From a virus (taxonomy: Duplodnaviria > Heunggongvirae > Uroviricota > Caudoviricetes): 64,000 nucleotides of DNA. Every line of letters begins with the position of its first letter. The first letter of the stretch is position 1. Below the pieces are notes generated by a model. That model was not told where the DNA came from. It saw only the letters and a list, made by a program, of their open reading frames with translations, and ran no database searches. Shown here piece by piece: positions 4,281-63,902 of this stretch. The position numbers were made by a program, and so were the translations under genes. The DNA lies in the IMG/VR virus record IMGVR_UViG_3300032322_001781. One strand, 5' to 3'.

Positions 4281-5483
4281 ATGGGATTTATATCAAGTGC
4301 AAATACGATTACATTAAACGCTAAGTTAACACCATTAGGTAGACAAAGAATGATTTCTACAAATAATGGACTTATCACCACATTTTCTTTGGGTGACTCT
4401 GACGCTAATTACTATGTTCCATTAACTTTGTCAACTGGACAAATTCCAGCTGAAGCTGGTGAAATTGGTGCAAACGCATCTTTTAGCAATAGTACTGCTC
4501 AAAACGTAAAATTAAAATCACCTATTATTGTTAATTCTAGTGGTTTACTAAGAAAACCAGTTGAATCTCAATCAATAACAATATCAACAGATTTATTATC
4601 AAATGGTTTTACAACAGTAAGTGGTAATAATTTAACACGAGTTATTATTGACAGAAATAATTACAATACGGATGCTTTGGTTAATTTATATTATTCATTT
4701 GGTTTACCTTTAAACACAAATAATGATAATACTTATACTGGTATAACATATGCAAATGGTGGATATTCAGATACAGCACTTAGTGCGATTTCTAAAACAA
4801 AAATATTAGTTATTGGCATAAACAATGCAAATTATGGTGAGTGTATTGATGGTAAAACTGTAAAAATACAATTACCTACATCAGCTGGCACCTATACAAT
4901 TTATAGCACTTTTCAAAATGATGGAACTTCTTTATCCATCCAAGATGCTAATATAAGAGACACATCAGTTGTAACAAGCTATTTAGATGATAATATTGCA
5001 ATGTTATTCTCAGATTCTATTGCTAGACCAAACGGTGGCTCTAGTTCATTAAGTTGGGCAACTGGATACGGGACAACAAAACCTTTTAGCGTTAATGGAA
5101 AACAACTTTACAATTTACAAACAAATAGCAATATTGGAACTACAGCTGATACTATTGTTGGTATTGCATACCTTGATAAGGGCTTTATGGTCATTACAAA
5201 CCAACAGATTATTTCAAATTATACTTCAACAGCAGCCACAGCTACTACAGTTAGTTTTAACAGTGTTTCAACTTCAGTTTACCAAAATATAACATGTGTT
5301 GCAGCTAGAGGCGAATTTGGCACTTCAACCAATTCAACTTTTACAGGTTCAGATGTTGTTAGGATTTCAGAAGTAGGTTTATACGACAATTTAAATAATT
5401 TGATAGCTATCGGTAAAACTGATAGACAAGTTACAAAAAATGTAAATGAATTTTTAGCTTTAAGTGTAAAAATAAATTTGTAA
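4281..5483 (+). CDS. Baseplate/tail structural protein (paralogous ends to 2144..4279)
   Basis: AKLTPLGR ... SEVGLYDNLNNLIAIGK motifs. Confidence 0.65.
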   Translation: MGFISSANTITLNAKLTPLGRQRMISTNNGLITTFSLGDSDANYYVPLTLSTGQIPAEAGEIGANASFSNSTAQNVKLKSPIIVNSSGLLRKPVESQSITISTDLLSNGFTTVSGNNLTRVIIDRNNYNTDALVNLYYSFGLPLNTNNDNTYTGITYANGGYSDTALSAISKTKILVIGINNANYGECIDGKTVKIQLPTSAGTYTIYSTFQNDGTSLSIQDANIRDTSVVTSYLDDNIAMLFSDSIARPNGGSSSLSWATGYGTTKPFSVNGKQLYNLQTNSNIGTTADTIVGIAYLDKGFMVITNQQIISNYTSTAATATTVSFNSVSTSVYQNITCVAARGEFGTSTNSTFTGSDVVRISEVGLYDNLNNLIAIGKTDRQVTKNVNEFLALSVKINL

Positions 5484-32756: not shown

Positions 32757-32868
32757 TTGGTAAAGTGTTTGTATTTTTAAATATAATTTAGTACCTTTGC
32801 ATTAACAATAAAAATATGTGGTCTTTTTTATTAGGCCACATATTTATATTACAAGTTCTTTAATTTAT

Positions 32869-33223
32869 GGGGATATAAAGGTATTGACTGAGTATAGTCG
32901 TAATTGGTAAGCATGTAGTGCTAAATGGAAGCACTTTAAACTAGCTATTAAACTTTTTAAACGGCAACGATTTTGTTGTATCCGAAAATTTCCTTAACGA
33001 AGCTGCATGCAGTTTCGCTGGAGAGCTTGCTGTAGCCTAATATAGCTGATAGTGATAATTCACTTCATCGTGGTATGTTCCACGACATGATGGTAGTCCA
33101 TTAGGGTATCATGATTTCCTTCACGAATAATCATGATATTTGGCTTCATTAGAAAAAGAAGATAAACATGTAGAAAGTCTTTGAAGAATATTCAACACAT
33201 GGGTTCGATTCCCATTATCTCCA
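32869..33223 (+). ncRNA. ssrA: tmRNA
   Basis: GGGGATA/TATCTCC acceptor, GGTTCGATTCCC T-arm, and tag ORF 32963-33040 (GNDFVVSENFLNEAACSFAGELAVA*). Confidence 0.92.
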
Positions 33224-33323
33224 CTCATACCAGATTTATGTCCAATAAATACGCCACGGGATATAAAATAAAAACCCCCAGTAAATCGCTTTATTGGGGG
33301 TAATTTTTTGGTAGCCTCAACAT

Positions 33324-33703: not shown

Positions 33704-33799
33704 AAAAAAAATATTTTTTTTAAATTTACTTGACAAATAATGATTTTTTTAGTACTTTTGCATATATATTTAAACAACGTTCTTTAAAAAACAAAAATT

Positions 33800-34020
33800 A
33801 TCCAAAAAGGTGGGTTCTGCAAACGAACTTTAAACAATTACTAATATGTAAAAAGTATGTGGGCCTTTTACCAAACCTATGACCGAAAGGATGGTTTGGA
33901 ACCAAAACCACCATGGTGTAAGACCATGTAAAAAAATAACTTCATGACGGAGGTCATGTAAAAATAGCTGCTAGGTAAACGGGAGTCCTATAAAATAAAA
34001 ACGAACAGCCATCTTGGGAT
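33800..34020 (+). ncRNA. Candidate structured ncRNA (helix + TTCTGCAA family)
   Basis: AAGGTGG/CCATCTT closing helix; internal hairpins CCAAACC/GGTTTGG, CATGG/CCATG, CATGAC/GTCATG; own TAnnTTTG promoter at 33753. Confidence 0.55.
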
Positions 34021-34025
34021 AACAT

Positions 34026-34095
34026 AGGGGATTGAGCGTAAGTAACGCTGAGGGCGATTGGGCCCTTTGATTAAGTATCGAATCTTCATCCCCTA
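34026..34095 (+). tRNA. Degenerate tRNA-like gene, anticodon unclear
   Basis: AGGGGAT/ATCCCCT acceptor, D-arm, AGGGC/GCCCT arm with a 6-nt loop, weak T-arm. Confidence 0.45.
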
Positions 34096-34100
34096 CATAT

Positions 34101-34172
34101 TGCGAGTCGGAGAAATGGTAACTCATTGGGCTCATAACCCAAAGATGGTTGGTTCGATTCCAACACTCGCTA
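34101..34172 (+). tRNA. tRNA-fMet(CAT)
   Basis: 1:72 mismatch, GGG/CCC anticodon stem, CAT anticodon. Confidence 0.9.
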
Positions 34173-34178
34173 CAAAAA

Positions 34179-34884: not shown

Positions 34885-35796
34885 ATGATTTTTAACAATA
34901 AAGTAAGTAGCGATAATGTTTTAAGACCAGAAAATAGGTCTTTCTTTGATAAGTATGTTAAAGAAATTGCAAAATTTAAAATTTTAACAAGGGATGAAGA
35001 ACAAAATCTTTTCAAGGAATATGAAGAGACTGGTGATGAAAAGATTTTAACTAAAATTTGTAAACACAATTTATTATTTGTTGTAACAGTAGCTAGACAT
35101 TATGCCAAATCGTTATCTTTTTCAAACACCATTGTGTTAGAAGATTTAGTAAACGAAGGAAATATGGGTTTATGCATTGCCGTTAAACGTTTTGACTATA
35201 AAACTGGTAATAAGTTTATAACATATGCTATATGGTTTATTAGACAACAAATTTTAAATTCAATGCAATTTAATTCTAAAAATATAAGAATCCCTTTCTC
35301 AGCTAGAGAAAATATAGTATTTTATAAAAATAAAAAAGATGAGTTAGAACAGAAACTAGGATGTGAAATTGATTTGGTTGATTTATATAATCATTTATCG
35401 GATGAAGGTTTATTAAGCGGTTTTGAAGATTTCACCAAAATGGAACATTTATTGAGGATGAATAAATATGAAACTAGATTAAATAGCAAAGTTGGTGACG
35501 ATGAAGAAGCTGAACTTATAGATTTTTTAAATACTTCTGACGATTATTTGGCTGATTCGGAACTTATGAAAAAAGATAGAAAAAATCAGGTTGATAGTAT
35601 TTTAAAAATGTTAGATGAAAAAACAGCTTCTTATATTAGAGATTATTTTGGGATTGATAGTACAGAACCATTGAATTTTAGGGGAATTGCAACGAAATAC
35701 AACACCAACCCAACAAATGTTATAAATCATATTAAAAGAGGTTTTAGACGAATTAATCGTCTAAAAAATAGAAAAGTTATTTCTATTGATATTTAA
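34885..35796 (+). CDS. Second sigma-70 family factor
   Basis: EDLVNEGNMGL and FITYAIWFIRQ motifs. Confidence 0.88.
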   Translation: MIFNNKVSSDNVLRPENRSFFDKYVKEIAKFKILTRDEEQNLFKEYEETGDEKILTKICKHNLLFVVTVARHYAKSLSFSNTIVLEDLVNEGNMGLCIAVKRFDYKTGNKFITYAIWFIRQQILNSMQFNSKNIRIPFSARENIVFYKNKKDELEQKLGCEIDLVDLYNHLSDEGLLSGFEDFTKMEHLLRMNKYETRLNSKVGDDEEAELIDFLNTSDDYLADSELMKKDRKNQVDSILKMLDEKTASYIRDYFGIDSTEPLNFRGIATKYNTNPTNVINHIKRGFRRINRLKNRKVISIDI

Positions 35797-35801
35797 TAAT
35801 A

Positions 35802-36980
35802 ATGAAACGTGAAATTGTAAAAATACTTAGAGAAGGACTTGTGCGTGAAGAACGTATAAAGTTTGATTTTACTATACCACAAGATATTCAACAAATAAAA
35901 GACGTGTTCAAAAAGAACGGTTTTAAACTATATGTTGTTGGTGGAGCTGTTCGTGATGCACTTTTGGGGAAAAAACCCAAAGATTTTGATTTGGTTACCG
36001 ATGCTCATCCAGACAAAGTAGAAGAAATTATGGCCAAATCTGGTCTTAGAACGCTCCCAACAGGCAAGGCGTTTGGTGTTATAAATGTGTTTACTGACCA
36101 AGGTGAATATGAAATAGCAACTATGCGTAAGGACATAGGTTCTGGCAGAAGACCAGATTCTGTTGAATATACAGATATTAATCACGATGTTTTAAGAAGA
36201 GACCTTACCATCAATGCATTGTTTTACGATATTGATACACATGAAATTGTTGATTTAGTTGGTGGTGTGCAAGACCTTAAAAATGGTGTTATAAGAACCG
36301 TTGGTGCACCAGAAGATAGATTTGGTGAAGACCGTTTGCGTATCATGAGAGCAATACGTTTTTCTGGCAGATTTGGAAATGAATTGGACCCAGCTACTGA
36401 TGCTGCGTTGCAAAAAGATGCGAGTCTTGAGGGAATTTCTGGTGAACGTATTCGTGATGAATTCATCAAAGGGATTAATTCTGCCAAGTCACAAAAACAC
36501 TTCTTGGAGATGTTAAACAGATACAATTTGTTTGATTGGATATTCAAAGGTTTGAATGTTGACTTGGATTTTATTTCTAGTATGAATAAGAATCATGATG
36601 ATTACATTGTGTTATTAGCAAGACTCCTAAAGAAAAACAACCTAGACGTATTAAAGAAAAAATTAAATGAATTAAAATACTCTGTTGAAGAAGTTAAAGC
36701 CATAACATTCCTTATAGCTATGTTGAAATTGGATGTTGACACAGCGGTTACCTTAAAAAAAGCTGAACAAAATTCTGGTGTATCTCCAGACCAAATCAGA
36801 GAGTTCTGTGGAAAGGAAAATGTGCCATCACAACTTTTGAACGCATTTGAAGAATTCAGACTTTCTGTAAGTGGCCAAGAAGTTATGGATAAAATGGGTT
36901 TGAAACAAGGTCCAGAGCTTGGTAAAGCAATTCAAAAGATTGAGACTGATAACTTCAAAAAAATACTGGGTTCTATCTAA
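35802..36980 (+). CDS. cca: CCA-adding tRNA nucleotidyltransferase
   Basis: VGGAVRD, DFDLVT, RRDLTINA and EDRLRIMRAIRF motifs. Confidence 0.93.
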   Translation: MKREIVKILREGLVREERIKFDFTIPQDIQQIKDVFKKNGFKLYVVGGAVRDALLGKKPKDFDLVTDAHPDKVEEIMAKSGLRTLPTGKAFGVINVFTDQGEYEIATMRKDIGSGRRPDSVEYTDINHDVLRRDLTINALFYDIDTHEIVDLVGGVQDLKNGVIRTVGAPEDRFGEDRLRIMRAIRFSGRFGNELDPATDAALQKDASLEGISGERIRDEFIKGINSAKSQKHFLEMLNRYNLFDWIFKGLNVDLDFISSMNKNHDDYIVLLARLLKKNNLDVLKKKLNELKYSVEEVKAITFLIAMLKLDVDTAVTLKKAEQNSGVSPDQIREFCGKENVPSQLLNAFEEFRLSVSGQEVMDKMGLKQGPELGKAIQKIETDNFKKILGSI

Positions 36981-38049: not shown

Positions 38050-38161
38050 ATATAATTCTTATTAAGAATATAGATAATTTTTTAAAATAAATTTGGTAAT
38101 GTCAAAATTAATTCGTACCTTTGTCTTATCAAATTAAAACAAAAAAAATATTTTGCAAAAA

Positions 38162-38226
38162 TACTTGACAAATTAAAAAATAATTAGTACCTTTGCATAA
38201 CTTTTAGAAAAAACAACATATTTATT
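38162..38226 (+). promoter_or_regulatory. tRNA-operon promoter, copy 1
   Basis: TTGACA (38165) ... TACCTTTG (38188) followed by TATTTAT; near-identical copies at about 56451, 59517 and 63425. Confidence 0.8.
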
Positions 38227-38240
38227 TAAAAATAAAAACA

Positions 38241-38342
38241 ATGAGAAACATTAATATACATATAAATTCGATTAGCATGTGGAGACGTAATAGTAATCCA
38301 TTTGAGTCGGCTATGTCTGTAAGTTTCTTTGATGACATCTAA
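38241..38342 (+). CDS. Attenuator leader peptide L1, MRNINIHINSISMWRRNSNPFESAMSVSFFDDI
   Basis: Codons 2-19 encode only R, N, I, H, S, M, W; antiterminator segment TTTGAGTCGG at 38301-38310. Confidence 0.85.
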   Translation: MRNINIHINSISMWRRNSNPFESAMSVSFFDDI

Positions 38343-38365
38343 AATCAAAATAAACAATAAAGAAG

Positions 38366-38401
38366 AACCCGATTCAGAATAAAATCTAAATCGGGTTTTT
38401 T
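38366..38401 (+). terminator. Attenuator terminator T1
   Basis: AACCCGATTCAG/CTAAATCGGGTT stem plus T-run. Confidence 0.85.
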
Positions 38402-38412
38402 CATTTTAAAAA

Positions 38413-38583
38413 ATGGCTGAACAAAGACTCAAAAAACTTGGAATCGTAAAAGCGACTAAATTAACCAAGAATTTTGATGAGCTTTATGAGGTTTACAAAA
38501 AGAAAGCTGAAAAAGCTGGATATATTGGTGAACTTAAGTTCATCAACGAACATGGTAGAGTGTTTATCTACGTAGTTCTTTGA
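38413..38583 (+). CDS. Small hypothetical protein (56 aa), first gene after T1
   Basis: MAEQRLKKLG...; not in the ORF track. Confidence 0.5.
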   Translation: MAEQRLKKLGIVKATKLTKNFDELYEVYKKKAEKAGYIGELKFINEHGRVFIYVVL

Positions 38584-38599
38584 CATGGTGGTTAAATAC

Positions 38600-38681
38600 A
38601 CAGTGGCATTCATTGGCGAGATAAGCAGTCTCCAAAACTGTGAGCATTACGCTCTTGTGAGTTCAACTCTCACTCACTGTG
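38600..38681 (+). tRNA. tRNA-Trp(CCA), long variable arm
   Basis: Cloverleaf, ctCCAaa loop, G73. Confidence 0.85.
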
Positions 38682-38695
38682 CAAATTATTTTAAT

Positions 38696-38786
38696 GGAAG
38701 CTCCCATGTGGCGTGGTACGTGGTCTTGAAAACCATGAGGTCGGTAACCAATCCGATGTGGCCGAGTTCGACTCTCCCAGTTTCCG
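38696..38786 (+). tRNA. tRNA-Ser(TGA)
   Basis: ctTGAaa loop, long variable arm, G73. Confidence 0.85.
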
Positions 38787-38802
38787 CTTTTAAACTTTAT
38801 AT

Positions 38803-38876
38803 GGGTCAGTTAGCTCAATTGGCAGAGCAATAGATTGTGATTCTATGGGTTATGGGTTCGAGTCCCATACTGGCCC
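38803..38876 (+). tRNA. tRNA-His(GTG)
   Basis: G-1, C73, ttGTGat loop. Confidence 0.9.
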
Positions 38877-38885
38877 CTTAAATAT

Positions 38886-38961
38886 GGTGTTTGAAGCTTT
38901 AATGGTTAAGCGTTGGTCTGTGAATCCAAAGAAGACGGCTCGGTACCGTCCTTACACCCCA
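38886..38961 (+). tRNA. tRNA-His(GTG)
   Basis: ctGTGaa loop, encoded CCA, atypical CTCGGTA T-loop. Confidence 0.8.
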
Positions 38962-39131
38962 CTTTTTTACCGCCTTTAAACGATGGTTTGAACTCCATAG
39001 AGATGGATGCTAGTGAATATGATAATAAACTAGGGCGGTTGAGAGTTAGAATTTATTATAAAATAAAAAAAATACACATGAAAAAAGAATTTGATATGCT
39101 TTAGGACTGCTAAACAACAGTCATTTAAGCA

Positions 39132-39317
39132 ATGAGTAACGAAAAATCAAAAACAACAAATCGTTCTGTATATAATAAACTATATCAAAACGAATTATCT
39201 AAAAAATTTGGATTATGTCCAATATGTGGCCCACATTCTGGTTGTAATAGTCGATTTGGAAAAAAAGGACCATATAGAAATTGGAAAAATTATAGAAAAA
39301 CAAGGTGGAAACAATAG
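39132..39317 (+). CDS. Small basic protein with CPICGPHSGC
   Basis: 61 aa ORF within the tRNA cluster. Confidence 0.55.
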   Translation: MSNEKSKTTNRSVYNKLYQNELSKKFGLCPICGPHSGCNSRFGKKGPYRNWKNYRKTRWKQ

Positions 39318-39333
39318 GGTCTCCACCATTAAA

Positions 39334-39418
39334 CGTGAGGTGGTCTAGCGGTTTGGGGCACCAGTCTGATACACTGGAGAGGAAACTCTATAGGTGGGTT
39401 CGACTCCCACCCTCACGA
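39334..39418 (+). tRNA. tRNA-Ile(GAT), long variable arm
   Basis: ctGATac loop, CCAGT/ACTGG stem. Confidence 0.85.
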
Positions 39419-39427
39419 CTTTAAATT

Positions 39428-39502
39428 CTTGAGGTAATAGTCAATGGTGAGACTGGGAAGCTTATATCTTCGCACGTGTGGGTTCGAGTCCCACCTTCAA
39501 GA
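39428..39502 (+). tRNA. tRNA-Ile(TAT)
   Basis: ctTATat loop, CTTGAGG/CTTCAAG acceptor. Confidence 0.8.
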
Positions 39503-39524
39503 CTTGGAACTTTTTGTAAAATAT

Positions 39525-39597
39525 GGACTGTAAGCTGACAAGGTGTAGCGGTGGTTTGTTAAACCAAGGGTGGTTGGTTCGATTCCAACACAGTCCG
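39525..39597 (+). tRNA. tRNA-Asn(GTT)
   Basis: ttGTTaa loop, G73. Confidence 0.88.
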
Positions 39598-39661
39598 CAA
39601 CATTAATTTTTATTGTTAATAATTGGTTTTTTGTGTTAGAACCACATAAATAATTAAAAAT

Positions 39662-39767
39662 GGACTGGTAGCTCAGAGGCAGAGCAAACGGCTAGGTGTG
39701 ATAATTAGTTTCACACAAAAGAGTGTTAACCGTTAGGCCGAGATTTCAAAATTCTCTCAGTCCTCCA
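39662..39767 (+). tRNA. tRNA-Asn(GTT) with a 31-nt insertion in the anticodon loop
   Basis: AACGG-CT-[39694..39724]-GTT-AA-CCGTT; encoded CCA. Confidence 0.7.
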
Positions 39768-39775
39768 AAATAAAT

Positions 39776-39845
39776 TGCATGTGTTATTGGAAAACAACCA
39801 GCTCTCATAAGGCAGGTCAAGTGGGTTCGACCCCCATCCATGCGA
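39776..39845 (+). tRNA. tRNA-Met(CAT) (or lysidine-type Ile)
   Basis: ctCATaa loop; imperfect stems. Confidence 0.7.
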
Positions 39846-39850
39846 CAAAT

Positions 39851-39930
39851 GCAGACGTAACCGAGCTAAGCTACGAACTTAGTAACCGTAAATGGAGTTG
39901 TAAATGGGGGTTCGAGTCCCTCCGTCTGTA
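39851..39930 (+). tRNA. tRNA-Arg(ACG), D-arm missing, long variable region
   Basis: GCAGACG/CGTCTGT acceptor, CTAAG-ctACGaa-CTTAG arm, only 8 nt between acceptor and anticodon stems. Confidence 0.65.
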
Positions 39931-39937
39931 CTATAAT

Positions 39938-40008
39938 GGTTCCATCGTTCAACGGAAGGACAAGGGTCTTCTAAGCCCTTTATGTAGGTTCGAGTCCTAC
40001 TGGGACTA
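39938..40008 (+). tRNA. tRNA-Arg(TCT)
   Basis: Canonical cloverleaf, ctTCTaa loop. Confidence 0.9.
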
Positions 40009-40012
40009 CTAT

Positions 40013-40101
40013 GGAGAGCTAACTGGACAGGGTTCCAGACTTGTTTGCTAAACAATGGGTGCGTCTAAAAAGCGCATGGTTTTCGATTAACCAGTTCTCC
40101 G
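40013..40101 (+). tRNA. tRNA-Ser(GCT)
   Basis: ttGCTaa loop, long variable arm, G73. Confidence 0.85.
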
Positions 40102-40149
40102 CCCTTGACTTTTTTATTTTGGCTAATATTTATAGAAAATTTTTAGCCA

Positions 40150-40536
40150 ATGTTTATACCAAACCACCTACATTTAATAGTTAAGGGTACCTTTAAAAAC
40201 CCACCAACAGAAGTTGATGTTTTAAATAAATGGTTTATTGAGTTAGTTGAAAGAGTTTCAATGAAAGTTGTCGCTGGCCCAACTTCAGTTTATGTACATG
40301 AAGAAGGCAATGAAGGATTGACAGGAACTGTTACTTTGGCAACCAGCCATGCATCAATACATATATGGGAAAAATATGAACCATCAATGTTTCAGTTTGA
40401 TATATATTCATGTTCATGTTTTTCTGCTGAAGAGGTTTTGCACCATTTAAATAAATTTGATTTAATAAAGTGTGAATACATTCTAATAGATAGAAACGGA
40501 GATAAAATGGTAATCATTGAAGATGGCTCAAAATGA
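40150..40536 (+). CDS. speD: S-adenosylmethionine decarboxylase proenzyme-like protein
   Basis: HL...G, GLTGTVTLATSHASIHIW and FDIYSC motifs. Confidence 0.75.
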   Translation: MFIPNHLHLIVKGTFKNPPTEVDVLNKWFIELVERVSMKVVAGPTSVYVHEEGNEGLTGTVTLATSHASIHIWEKYEPSMFQFDIYSCSCFSAEEVLHHLNKFDLIKCEYILIDRNGDKMVIIEDGSK

Positions 40537-41365: not shown

Positions 41366-41929
41366 ATGAAACATTTAATTAAAAAATTATTAAGAGAAAA
41401 TTTACTTAAAGAAATTAAAACGATAAAACCTATTATAGCTTATCACGGCAGTCCTAATAAAATATTAAAATTTGTTGATGAGTTTGTAGGTGGGGAAAAA
41501 GCCAACGACCAAGAAGGTCCAGGTATTTATTTTACTTCATCATTTGACAATGCTGGACATTATGGGGGGTATGTTCATACAGTCACACTTTCACCTAGAA
41601 AACTAATATCCATGGCTCCATCATCAAATAAAATTAGCGGTCTTATTAATAAAATGGTTTTGATGGCACCAGATTGGCAAATGTCAGCTCAAAACTATGA
41701 TGAAAACCCTAGAATAGGACTTAGAAATTTTATAGAAGCAACCATTGATTACAATGATACTGAAAAAGATGTGGTTCAACAGATATGGTATGATTTTTAT
41801 CGTTACAACCCAATTGATTTTGTTAGGAATATGGTTAAACTAGGTATTGATGGGATAATGGTTACCAAAGATAATGGTGTTATTCATTATATTATATATA
41901 ATCCATCCATAATAAAAATTCAAGATTAA
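41366..41929 (+). CDS. ADP-ribosyltransferase-like protein with KKLLRE leader
   Basis: AYHGS and GPGIYFTS motifs. Confidence 0.65.
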   Translation: MKHLIKKLLRENLLKEIKTIKPIIAYHGSPNKILKFVDEFVGGEKANDQEGPGIYFTSSFDNAGHYGGYVHTVTLSPRKLISMAPSSNKISGLINKMVLMAPDWQMSAQNYDENPRIGLRNFIEATIDYNDTEKDVVQQIWYDFYRYNPIDFVRNMVKLGIDGIMVTKDNGVIHYIIYNPSIIKIQD

Positions 41930-41966
41930 TTTGGTTTTATAAAATTAATCTTGTACCTTTGTCTTT

Positions 41967-42896
41967 ATGAAAGATAAAATCAAAGAAATATTACGTGAAA
42001 ACGTAGATAAAAATATTTTGGGGGTTAGTGTTACAAGACCTAATCAAGAGCTTATTATTATGCGTGGTGTACCTGGAGCTGGAAAATCAACCAAAGCCAA
42101 ATCGCTTGTAGGTCAAGGAAAAATTCACTCGACTGATGACCTCATTCAAAAGTCTGGTGATTATCGTGAATTTTTTGCTAATATGATTGCTACAGGTGAT
42201 TTTAGTGCTTTAAGCAAAATGCATTCCCAAAACCTAAAAGACGCTATTGCCTCTATGAAATCTGGTGTTACACCAGTTATCGTAGATAACACCAACATTA
42301 AGCAAAACGAACCAAAAGCGTATGTTGTAGCGGCACTAGAAATGGGCTTTGCTGATAACAATATAAAGTTTGTTGACGTTGGTACAGCTGGGCTTGAAGC
42401 ACAACAATTAGTTGAAAGAAACACTCATGGTGTTCCATTAAATAAAATTGAAGCGATGATTGCAAGTCACACAGCACAAGGCCCCCTTACTCTTAAAAGT
42501 GTTTTGGAATCTAAGGATATGTATAATAAATCAAATGTATTATATTCTTGTGTTCTTCTAGATAAAGCTTCGCACAACAAATTAATTGACAGATTTGCCT
42601 TGGATATTCCTGATGGTTGGAAAACATTTGCTCATCACATGACAATAACAATGGGTGAGTTAAAGGATAAGACAGACATTGGCAAAGAAGTTATTTTGAA
42701 GGTAATAAAAGTTGGTTTGTCTGATATGGCAATGGCTGTACAAGTCGATGGGTATCCATCAAAAAATGTTATCCCCCATGTTACTATTGCGGTGAACCCA
42801 GAAGGTGGTAAACCAAAAGATTCTAATGACATTACCAAATGGGAAGATATTAAACCTTTTTATGTCACAGGTTTTGTAACCGAAATCACGAAGTAA
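41967..42896 (+). CDS. Polynucleotide-kinase-like P-loop fused to a 2H phosphoesterase domain
   Basis: GVPGAGKST, VDNTN and RNTHGVP; C-terminal HHMTI and PHVTI 2H motifs. Confidence 0.8.
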   Translation: MKDKIKEILRENVDKNILGVSVTRPNQELIIMRGVPGAGKSTKAKSLVGQGKIHSTDDLIQKSGDYREFFANMIATGDFSALSKMHSQNLKDAIASMKSGVTPVIVDNTNIKQNEPKAYVVAALEMGFADNNIKFVDVGTAGLEAQQLVERNTHGVPLNKIEAMIASHTAQGPLTLKSVLESKDMYNKSNVLYSCVLLDKASHNKLIDRFALDIPDGWKTFAHHMTITMGELKDKTDIGKEVILKVIKVGLSDMAMAVQVDGYPSKNVIPHVTIAVNPEGGKPKDSNDITKWEDIKPFYVTGFVTEITK

Positions 42897-56450: not shown

Positions 56451-56512
56451 TACTTGACAAATTGAAAAATAATTACTACCTTTGCATAACTTTTAAAAAT
56501 AACTATATATTT
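56451..56512 (+). promoter_or_regulatory. tRNA-operon promoter, copy 2
   Basis: TTGACA at 56454, TACCTTTG at 56477. Confidence 0.8.
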
Positions 56513-56521
56513 AATAGTAAT

Positions 56522-56596
56522 ATGAAAAACTTAAATTTAAACTTAGTCCTTGTGTTATGTTTGCTAGTGGCAGACTGGATGGGCTATGTTTGTTAA
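56522..56596 (+). CDS. Attenuator leader peptide L2, MKNLNLNLVLVLCLLVADWMGYVC
   Basis: 11 of codons 2-16 are L, V or C; antiterminator segment GGATGGGCT at 56577-56585. Confidence 0.85.
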   Translation: MKNLNLNLVLVLCLLVADWMGYVC

Positions 56597-56620
56597 GTAA
56601 GTAATAAACTGAAATAACCG

Positions 56621-56650
56621 AAGCCCATCCGTAAAAAGATGGGCTTTTTG
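56621..56650 (+). terminator. Attenuator terminator T2
   Basis: AAGCCCATC/GATGGGCTT stem plus T-run. Confidence 0.88.
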
Positions 56651-57465: not shown

Positions 57466-57525
57466 CAAAAATAAATTTGGTAATATTAAAAATATATATT
57501 ACCTTTGTTTCGTTCTTTAATATAT

Positions 57526-57688: not shown

Positions 57689-57794
57689 GGTGAGGTGGTG
57701 AAATTGGTAGACGCAACCTATTAAGGGGTCGGAGGTAATAGCAAAACGTAAGATACGGAATAACTCCATGCAAGTTCAAATCTTGTCCTCACCA
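57689..57794 (+). tRNA. tRNA-Leu-like gene, irregular anticodon loop (TAA or AAG), variable arm of about 40 nt
   Basis: Leu-type D-arm GGTGAAATTGGTAGACGC, intact acceptor and T-arm. Confidence 0.6.
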
Positions 57795-57870: not shown

Positions 57871-57968
57871 GGCCAGATGGTGGAATTGGTAGACACAGCG
57901 TAAGTAGGTATTACAGTAAACCGAACTCGCTTCTGTATTTATGTAGGTTCGAGTCCTACTCTGGGCCA
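57871..57968 (+). tRNA. tRNA-Leu-like gene with elongated anticodon arm (CAG at tip?)
   Basis: Leu-type D-arm; AGCG/CGCT stem encloses 27 nt. Confidence 0.55.
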
Positions 57969-59455: not shown

Positions 59456-59516
59456 AATAAATTTGGTAATGTTAAAATTAATACATACCTTTGTCCTATC
59501 AAATTAAAAACAAAAA

Positions 59517-59582
59517 TACTTGACAATTTAAAATTAATTAGTACCTTTGCATAACTTTTAAAAACAACAACATATTTATATT
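59517..59582 (+). promoter_or_regulatory. tRNA-operon promoter, copy 3
   Basis: TTGACA at 59520, TACCTTTG at 59542, then TATTTAT. Confidence 0.8.
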
Positions 59583-59595
59583 AAAAATAAAAACA

Positions 59596-59685
59596 ATGAG
59601 AACTTTTAACAACATATTTGATTTTGCAGCGTTTGCAGCCGAGGAGGATAGACTCTTAGGTAGGTCAGTTATTGTCAAAAGTTAA
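59596..59685 (+). CDS. Attenuator leader peptide L3, MRTFNNIFDFAAFAAEEDRLLGRSVIVKS
   Basis: 12 of codons 2-18 are F, D, A or E; antiterminator segment GGTCAG at 59663-59668. Confidence 0.85.
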   Translation: MRTFNNIFDFAAFAAEEDRLLGRSVIVKS

Positions 59686-59708
59686 CATAAAAAGTTAAAA
59701 CATGATAG

Positions 59709-59738
59709 AAGCCTGACCGTAAAAAGTCAGGCTTTTTT
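59709..59738 (+). terminator. Attenuator terminator T3
   Basis: AAGCCTGAC/GTCAGGCTT stem plus T-run. Confidence 0.88.
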
Positions 59739-61113: not shown

Positions 61114-61235
61114 AGGGAGGTGGCCAAATTGGTAAAGGCGGCAGTAAGCAAAAAGATTAATCTGTTAAGATTAAGTTCAGCAACCAAAACGCAATGGAAA
61201 ACTGCTATTTGTGGGTTCGAATCCTACCCTCCCTA
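61114..61235 (+). tRNA. tRNA-like gene with a 55-nt anticodon loop containing the helix + TTCAGCAA motif
   Basis: AGGGAGG/CCTCCCT acceptor; GCAGT/ACTGC stem encloses TTAATCT/AGATTAA-GTTCAGCAA. Confidence 0.65.
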
Positions 61236-63424: not shown

Positions 63425-63490
63425 ACTTGACAAATTAAAAATTAATTAGTACCTTTGCATAACTTTTAGAAACAACAACATATTTATATA
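63425..63490 (+). promoter_or_regulatory. tRNA-operon promoter, copy 4
   Basis: TTGACA at 63427, TACCTTTG at 63450, then TATTTAT. Confidence 0.8.
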
Positions 63491-63502
63491 ACAATAAAAG
63501 CA

Positions 63503-63595
63503 ATGAAAACAACAACGACATATACAGGGAAACAGTATCCGCAAGGCAAACAATTGCCTAACGGACTAGTAATGTCGTTATATAATCTAAGCTAA
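63503..63595 (+). CDS. Attenuator leader peptide L4, MKTTTTYTGKQYPQGKQLPNGLVMSLYNLS
   Basis: Codons 2-17 encode only K, T, Y, G, Q, P; antiterminator segment GGACTAG at 63563-63569. Confidence 0.85.
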   Translation: MKTTTTYTGKQYPQGKQLPNGLVMSLYNLS

Positions 63596-63618
63596 CAAAA
63601 CTTAGATATTTTAAAGAC

Positions 63619-63651
63619 AACCCCTAGTCCTCAAAAAACTAGGGGTTTTTT
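63619..63651 (+). terminator. Attenuator terminator T4
   Basis: AACCCCTAGT/ACTAGGGGTT stem plus T-run. Confidence 0.88.
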
Positions 63652-63714
63652 GTTTTTGGTAGGTCACCATATAAAATATAGACCAAACGTATATTTGACA
63701 TTTTGGATTTTCAT

Positions 63715-63795: not shown

Positions 63796-63889
63796 CGGGA
63801 TTTGTGCGAGAGGTTTAAGCATCCAGTCTTGGAAACTGGAAACCGTACAAGGTTAGTGCGGTTCGAGGGTTCGACTCCCTCAATCCCGA
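63796..63889 (+). tRNA. tRNA-Ser(GGA)
   Basis: CCAGT-ctTGGAa region read as ttGGAaa; long variable arm. Confidence 0.75.
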
Positions 63890-63902
63890 CAAATTTTATC
63901 AT

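Follow-up and report, generated by a model that had tools for sequence, protein, structure and literature searches.

The closest described counterparts of the locus reported here are the enterobacterial leader-peptide attenuators, which include the multivalent leaders of ilvGMEDA (Ile, Leu, Val) and thr (Thr, Ile) as well as trpL, hisL, leuL and pheL. In all of these, a short translated leader with regulatory codons is followed by an intrinsic terminator and by an antiterminator that is exclusive with it and depends on the position of the stalled ribosome. Classical attenuators serve amino-acid biosynthesis or synthetase genes. Closest in spirit by its target is the pheST attenuator of Escherichia coli, whose pheM leader places a component of the translation apparatus, an aminoacyl-transfer RNA (tRNA) synthetase for one amino acid, under cognate-codon attenuation. 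T-box elements (Rfam family RF00230) are also found upstream of translation-related genes and report tRNA status by antitermination; they are untranslated and bind uncharged tRNA through one specifier codon. The T4-like, jumbo and huge phages carry clustered tRNAs together with repair or maturation genes. The regulation of phage tRNA genes is largely unknown, and they are usually treated as constitutive supplements to codon usage. We analysed a 64,000-nucleotide stretch of phage DNA (Caudoviricetes; IMG/VR record IMGVR_UViG_3300032322_001781), hereafter called the window, in which a 33-codon open reading frame (ORF) and a terminator, together called unit 1, precede a cluster of 12 tRNA genes (cluster 1). 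From its sequence, unit 1 is likely to be a ribosome-mediated, leader-peptide transcription attenuator that gates this tRNA operon and provides for on-demand tRNA synthesis.

Unit 1 would work much as the ilv and thr leaders do, with several amino acids sampled by one leader. It differs from them in that its targets are 12 tRNA genes and two small ORFs and not biosynthetic enzymes, which places it outside the classical scope of attenuators, and in that the sensed product is also the product made. The phage unit samples seven amino acids and ten anticodons, mostly through single codons, and it belongs to a phage of a presumed Bacteroidota host. Unlike pheST, it would control the tRNAs themselves, for seven amino acids, and unlike a T-box its leader shows coding constraint. 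As in known phage tRNA arrays, the tRNA genes are accompanied by repair and maturation functions (here a CCA-adding enzyme, a ligase/kinase-like protein and a transfer-messenger RNA, tmRNA); a codon-matched leader ORF and a terminator ahead of the array distinguish this locus from those described. A full-text search, mostly confined to journals open without subscription, returned no published account of leader-peptide control of tRNA genes or of codon-matched leaders before phage arrays. A possible precedent, an attenuator-like leader at the E. coli tRNA-Phe genes, was not borne out, as in strain K-12 the stretch from the pheV promoter to the gene contains neither a leader ORF nor a terminator.

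The structural features that define leader-peptide attenuators are all present in unit 1, namely an ORF, cognate codons, a terminator with no promoter behind it and a co-varying alternative helix. From this anatomy we infer that the leader is translated, in which direction the switch works, and that tRNA supply is its signal. The leader ORF (38241..38342; all features of the four units and of cluster 1 lie on the plus strand) runs from an ATG at 38241 to a stop codon at 38340-38342, and its 33-residue product is MRNINIHINSISMWRRNSNPFESAMSVSFFDDI, also written MRNINIHINSISMWRRNSN-PFESAMSVSFFDDI. Its start context is A-rich and devoid of a Shine-Dalgarno sequence, resembling those of the long genes of the phage, only 3 of 43 of which are preceded by a Shine-Dalgarno-like sequence in their A-rich upstream regions. 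Comparison of the window with the relative L119 revealed seven synonymous codon changes where 1.46 were expected, an excess that supports the reading frame.

Codons 2-19 (38244..38297), which constitute the putative sensor, are AGA AAC ATT AAT ATA CAT ATA AAT TCG ATT, followed by AGC ATG TGG AGA CGT AAT AGT AAT. Every one of them is readable by the anticodons encoded downstream (AGA by TCT, CGT by ACG, TCG by TGA, AGC and AGT by GCT, ATT by GAT, ATA by TAT, CAT by GTG, AAC and AAT by GTT, ATG by CAT and TGG by CCA), and all ten anticodons are sampled. The first-pass annotation had proposed that all 18 codons belong to the set {R,N,I,H,S,M,W} and that this set is the one carried by the downstream tRNAs. 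The 18/18 match was confirmed, and the second proposal also stands, with 12 tRNAs and seven amino acids correct, several of the genes being non-canonical and some needing relaxed search settings. With the phage's own codon usage, the probability that 18 of 18 codons fall in the set is 0.304^18 = 5e-10, and the probability that all ten anticodons are then covered is 0.02. In the six frames of the 64-kilobase (kb) window, the longest run of codons for this set is that of leader 1 (19 codons), the next best being 10. Codons 2 and 3 fit an M-[RK]-[NT] start motif common to all four leaders of the window (see below); they probably serve initiation, with codons 4-19 as the sensor proper.

Such a display of codons for downstream tRNAs might also suit direct sensing, in which an untranslated leader would pair its codons with anticodons in the manner of a T-box. 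We regard this as highly improbable. Homologues retain the start codon (ATG), the frame and the stop codon, with more synonymous changes than expected, and 18 consecutive in-frame codons are not a specifier loop. Moreover, there was no match to RF00230, to another riboswitch or to the Rfam leader families (Trp, His, Leu, Thr, Phe) at the gathering score or, over 38150-40200, at E values up to 10.

Unit 1 is preceded by Bacteroidota-type promoters. TAnnTTTG, the -7 element of Bacteroidota promoters, is found in intergenic regions of the window, most commonly as TACCTTTG. Upstream of leader 1, a TTGACA motif (38165-38170) and a TACCTTTG box (38188-38195) form an element (38165..38195) that is nearly identical ahead of all four leaders, as seen in their alignment and from TANNTTTG matches. 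A tandem promoter of a second class (AAATAAATTTGGTAATGT...TACCTTTG; 38088..38123, with its -7 box at 38116-38123) lies farther upstream. No TAnnTTTG box is present on either strand from 38196 to 40451. The 12 tRNA genes and two small ORFs of cluster 1 have therefore no evident promoter of their own and depend on read-through of the terminator. An exact 14-mer scan with the promoter sequence mostly matched unrelated contigs without tRNA arrays.

The intrinsic terminator (38366..38401) consists of a 5' arm (38366-38378), a loop (38379-38384), a 3' arm (38385-38397) and a T-run (38396-38401). The hairpin has a predicted energy of -18.3 kcal/mol and is followed by six T, the first two of which close the stem; one terminator listing gives the 38366-38397 hairpin on the minus strand only. 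The 5' strand of the predicted antiterminator, TTTGAGTCGG (region 2; 38301..38310, codons 21-24), pairs with 38369-38378 in the terminator 5' arm over 10 base pairs, including 2 G-U, as the first-pass annotation had claimed. This duplex, whose pairing co-varies in homologues, has an energy of -12.9 kcal/mol, equalled by 1.25% of shuffled leaders.

We then folded the RNA with 27 nucleotides blocked around each codon in the ribosomal A site, considering the RNA made up to the terminator loop. In leader 1, an A site anywhere from codon 1 to codon 18 leaves the terminator 5' arm sequestered, whereas one at codons 19-29 frees it, a boundary at codons 18/19 that the classical logic of attenuation would predict. 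With the full RNA, a mask at codons 7-15 lowers the terminator probability from 0.98 to 0.2-0.7. Without a mask, the leader 1 RNA is strongly structured relative to shuffled sequences (z = -4.35), the sensor pairing with the tail of the ORF while the terminator stands. In all four leaders, and in most of 16 homologues of leader 1, the cognate codons stop at the point from which a stalled ribosome would cover region 2.

On this basis, unit 1 could work as follows. Transcripts from the promoters at 38116 and 38188 would start with the 33-codon ORF, whose codons 2-19 sample every anticodon species encoded downstream. If a matching charged tRNA is scarce, decoding would be slow and the ribosome would stall, its A site no farther than codon 18. 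This would leave region 2 free to pair with the emerging 5' arm of the terminator, which would be blocked, and the polymerase would read into the tRNA genes. If decoding is fast, the ribosome would cover region 2 (A site at codons ~19-29), or the sensor would re-pair with the tail behind it, so that the terminator would form and transcription would stop at 38396-38401. The outcome would be a negative feedback whereby the tRNA set is made on demand, and the three sister units of the window would do likewise for the remaining amino acids.

The same RNA switch might respond to amino-acid starvation, that is, to tRNA charging as in the trp and his leaders and not to tRNA amount, in which case its output would rise in a starved host. 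This is the main variant to be weighed, since a stalled ribosome cannot distinguish a scarce tRNA from an uncharged one, and the pairing and folding anatomy fits both signals. We nevertheless consider it unlikely. Extra tRNA does not relieve amino-acid starvation, and the match at the level of anticodons, with both isoacceptor families sampled for Arg, Ser and Ile, fits the sensing of tRNA species better.

Three further units of this build, each with the promoter block, a short ORF and a hairpin followed by a T-run, stand ahead of the other tRNA clusters of the window. Unit 2 (56477..56650), with its promoter, leader MKNLNLNLVLVLCLLVADWMGYVC (ATG at 56522) and terminator (56622-56645), lies ahead of Cys, Val and Leu tRNAs. 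Unit 3 (59542..59738; leader MRTFNNIFDFAAFAAEEDRLLGRSVIVKS, ATG at 59596; terminator at 59710-59733) precedes Phe, Glu, Asp and Ala tRNAs, and unit 4 (63450..63652; leader MKTTTTYTGKQYPQGKQLPNGLVMSLYNLS, ATG at 63503; terminator at 63621-63645) precedes Pro and Gln tRNAs. Cluster 4 runs off the window and continues in relatives with Tyr, Thr, Gly and Lys. The nearest record, G001, ends at unit 4. As L008, which harbours a leader 4 homologue, gave no downstream tRNA calls, the content of cluster 4 was taken from the relatives G002 and G003. Together, the four tRNA sets cover all 20 amino acids.

Each leader favours the amino acids of its own cluster. The codons that correspond to the leader's own tRNA set amount to 18/18, 11/17, 12/21 and 17/18 for leaders 1 to 4, respectively, and the longest in-set run of the whole window is that of the own leader in units 2-4 as well (9 versus 7, 11 versus 7 and 16 versus 10 codons). 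The 4x4 table of leaders by tRNA sets is diagonal in the window and in two relatives. Each of the four leaders also harbours at codons 19-25 an antiterminator segment complementary to the 5' arm of its own terminator. In comparisons with shuffled sequences, these segments gave P = 0.0125, <0.0005, 0.11 and 0.036 for leaders 1 to 4.

Cluster 2 is unlike cluster 1 in having an internal promoter. It is a copy of the second-class promoter (AAATAAATTTGGTAATGT...TACCTTTGT) at 57470-57507, directly ahead of the Leu tRNAs, and it would bypass attenuator 2. Promoters of this class also stand in tandem upstream of units 1 (38088-38123) and 3 (59456-59493).

To follow unit 1 beyond the window, we used the neighbouring CCA-adding enzyme as a query and retrieved 33 viral contigs with 53-88% identity. 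They yielded 16 distinct leader 1 homologues, each ahead of the same tRNA set. In their sensors, 271 of 285 residues (95%) belong to the set, all exceptions being at codons 2-4, compared with baselines of 37% in the homologue tails and 30.5% in the proteome. This composition is maintained in varying orders (INSISMW, MISINSW, MISISNW, MNSINW, IIHIMSSINW). Both TCN and AGY Ser codons and both ATT and ATA are present in every homologue, and the Arg codons of a conserved W-R-R block are nearly always AGA then CGY, i.e., one for each Arg tRNA. The same four leader-cluster pairs were found in G003-G006 and in G002, whose 362-kb genome is complete and has terminal repeats.

The tail of the leader and both arms of the terminator co-vary, with at least five sequence classes. 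These include GAGTCGG(G) with CCCGAYT or GCTCGACT (also given as GAGTCGG/CCGAYT), GGTCAAGG with CCTTGAC (a pair also given as GGTCAAGG/CCTTGACC), TGTCAGG with CCTGACA, and AGGTCA..GCTT with AAGC..TGACCT. Among close relatives, one pair is G-U, A-U or G-C, and the 3' arm of the terminator changes in step. The co-variation was read from the duplexes of individual sequences; RNAalifold found no consensus in a MAFFT alignment of the homologues, in which terminators of different classes were misaligned.

Two side observations concern the leaders of relatives. In most of them (e.g. L002, L119 and L129), a small GGGG-N3-CCC hairpin separates the promoter from the leader ATG; leader 1 of the window lacks this hairpin. 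In G002 (L154, minus strand, ~5025-5143), a nested mini-leader, MKTTKFICKKKKKR, with a hairpin is found directly ahead of the Lys tRNAs inside cluster 4.

A distant case of the same design was found in LR745206.1, an uncultured phage of 635 kb; its CCA-adding enzyme shares only 39% identity with that of the window. The phage has four tRNA arrays and seven leader-terminator units, and its amino acids are partitioned differently. The seven groups are His, Phe, Trp and Lys; Arg and Ser; Glu and Tyr (with Ser); Ile, Gly, Met and Ala; Asn, Arg, Leu, Val, Ile, Thr and Met; Pro and Asp (with Ala); and Gln. The leaders follow these tRNA blocks, as exemplified by MTTTQQIQQQQINQTD ahead of three Gln tRNAs, and, of the 5040 permutations that pair leaders with blocks, the real one alone ranks first. 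In 5 of the 7 units, an antiterminator segment directly follows the sensor. Between this phage and the window, leader composition thus changes along with tRNA content, a form of evidence not available from the close relatives, since tRNA sets are invariant in their clade. At least two phage lineages that are far apart and group the amino acids differently have this design, which is a general strategy, not a curiosity of one genome.

These data also bear on whether unit 1 is simply a small peptide gene and a constitutive terminator that happen to lie upstream of tRNA genes, the codon match reflecting chance or shared ancestry. The invariance of the tRNA sets within the clade is in keeping with that, as the homologues are not independent events. 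However, the match has the very low probability given above for unit 1 alone, there are four units in the window, no promoter stands behind the terminator, and an unrelated lineage with a different partition still matches. A fortuitous arrangement is given a minimal probability and, like a T-box mechanism, was rejected. At the level of sequence, the ORF, its codons, the antiterminator, the promoterless terminator, the four loci, the homologues and LR745206.1 concur with the leader-peptide attenuator put forward in the first-pass annotation.

A number of observations weigh against that attenuator. Even with no ribosome on the RNA, folding favours the antiterminator (P ~0.8) as long as the 3' arm of the terminator has not been transcribed, and the ORF extends 10 codons past region 2, which is thus exposed again once the ribosome reaches the stop codon. 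Termination must consequently depend on suitable timing, or on the sensor quickly re-pairing with the tail once the ribosome has passed. Equilibrium folding alone does not produce an off state, and the state after passage of the ribosome is ambiguous. Most tRNA species are sampled by one codon only (Trp, His, internal Met, CGT, TCG), whereas classical attenuator leaders use runs of regulatory codons, and the sensitivity may therefore be low. The near-invariant W-R-R-N-S block reveals a constraint beyond composition, and several of the cluster 1 tRNAs are non-canonical and only putatively functional. Finally, the codons of leader 1 are also read by host tRNAs, so that supply may or may not become limiting, and the coupling of translation and transcription in the presumed Bacteroidota host is itself presumed.

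An antiterminator that is predicted to form by default in the absence of a ribosome, before the 3' arm emerges, would also suit a general gauge of translation speed, in which any slowing lets it form and codon identity is secondary. We deem such a gauge quite improbable, as the composition is specific to each unit, both in the four units of the window and in the seven of LR745206.1, and as it is 95% kept in the homologues while the order changes.

If unit 1 is a codon-matched attenuator, its tRNA output would be under product feedback, sensed via the ribosome, and a textbook mechanism would be extended to a new target class and to Bacteroidota phages. Codon-matched attenuators would also be small, ready-made sensors of how available individual tRNAs are, with a bearing on the arms race around tRNA-targeting defences. 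It is possible, and we propose it tentatively, that large phages of Bacteroidota have a complete, self-tuning tRNA supply, in which a few operons share out the 20 amino acids and each is switched on only by slow decoding of its codon-matched leader. Such a phage would make good a loss of host tRNAs at the moment it occurs, for instance upon degradation of the pool or after the action of tRNA-cleaving defence nucleases, a picture that the nearby tRNA repair genes fit. This would be the first instance of leader-peptide attenuation acting on tRNA genes, and a sensor of tRNA abundance that is natural and has several inputs.

Cluster 1 comprises 12 tRNA genes with 10 anticodons between 38600 and 40103. 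ARAGORN with default settings detected five of them (Ser TGA, His GTG, Ile GAT, Asn GTT and Arg TCT), and Rfam at gathering score added the second His and Arg ACG genes, i.e., 5-7 of 12 are above default thresholds. The remaining five (Trp, Ile TAT, Asn with an insertion, Met and Ser GCT) were identified using relaxed ARAGORN settings and an E-value-based Rfam search. The identities of the cluster 1 tRNAs recur in relatives.

The first gene of the cluster, for tRNA-Trp (CCA; 38600..38682), has a long variable arm; it was found by ARAGORN -ps and scores 33.8 bits, under the cut-off, with the tRNA-Sec model. It is followed by tRNA-Ser (TGA; 38696..38787; default ARAGORN) and by two tRNA-His (GTG) genes, at 38804..38877 (default ARAGORN; Rfam 65.9 bits) and 38887..38961 (Rfam 36.9 bits; ARAGORN -ps90). 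The gene for tRNA-Ile (GAT; 39334..39419; default ARAGORN and Rfam) also has a long variable arm, and that for tRNA-Ile (TAT; 39431..39499), with the anticodon loop CUUAUAU, reaches 28.7 bits in Rfam for a cut-off of 29. The gene for tRNA-Asn (GTT; 39525..39598; default ARAGORN and Rfam) is followed by a tRNA-Asn-like gene with a 31-nucleotide insertion in its anticodon loop (39662..39767), which was called in the intron mode of ARAGORN only and whose anticodon was read as GTT. The gene with anticodon CAT (39776..39846; Met or Ile2) was detected with ARAGORN -ps90 only, and CAT tRNAs are present in this cluster in relatives. The last three genes are those of tRNA-Arg (ACG; 39851..39930), with a reduced D arm, a long variable region and the loop CUACGAA (Rfam 32.9 bits), tRNA-Arg (TCT; 39938..40009; default ARAGORN and Rfam) and tRNA-Ser (GCT; 40013..40103; ARAGORN -ps90; 33.8 bits with the tRNA-Sec model). 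Two small ORFs complete the operon. One codes for 56 residues between the terminator and the first tRNA gene (38413..38583) and is kept in some relatives (L004, L006); the other, identified by ORF calling within the cluster (39132..39317), codes for 61 residues with CxxC...C motifs. Neither had a match in Pfam or PHROGs.

Some features of the tRNA genes recur beyond single cases. Long, type II-like variable arms are found on tRNAs that are normally of type I, namely Trp CCA (38600-38682), Ile GAT (39334-39419) and Pro TGG (63796-63890). Insertions of 30-50 nucleotides in or near the anticodon loop of tRNA-like genes are seen at 39662-39767, 57689-57794, 57872-57960 and 61114-61235. They are too short for group I introns, and that of the Asn gene folds into a hairpin by itself. 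In relatives and LR745206.1, tRNAs with a CTA anticodon, which ARAGORN labels Pyl, were called in L158 (850, 4329), L161 (3510), L164 (4290) and L165 (11084, 14264). They would suppress amber codons, hinting at TAG read-through or recoding in these phages.

The window has ~31% G+C, with coding sequences mostly on one strand, and harbours a tmRNA gene and more than 25 tRNA genes. Near-identical DNA is present in lake and freshwater metagenomes, and a DNA search among GenBank phages found no close relative; a search for RNA datasets that contain 38150-40150 returned none. The source is a large uncultured phage whose host is probably a freshwater Bacteroidota. Proteins encoded in the window include sigma-70-like, ADP-ribosyltransferase-like and kinase/tRNA-ligase-like proteins and the CCA-adding enzyme. 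Their genes (34885-36980 and 41366-42896) flank cluster 1 and look like an island for tRNA maintenance and repair. Within 32792-32868, ahead of the tmRNA gene (32869-33226), lie a TACCTTTG promoter that serves this gene and a leader with a hairpin, ATATGTGG...CCACATAT. Between a promoter box and a tRNA-Met gene (34101-34173), ~330 nucleotides without an ORF (33753-34100) contain several hairpins and, near 34027-34098, a tRNA-like piece; this region may correspond to a structured RNA or to decayed tRNA genes.

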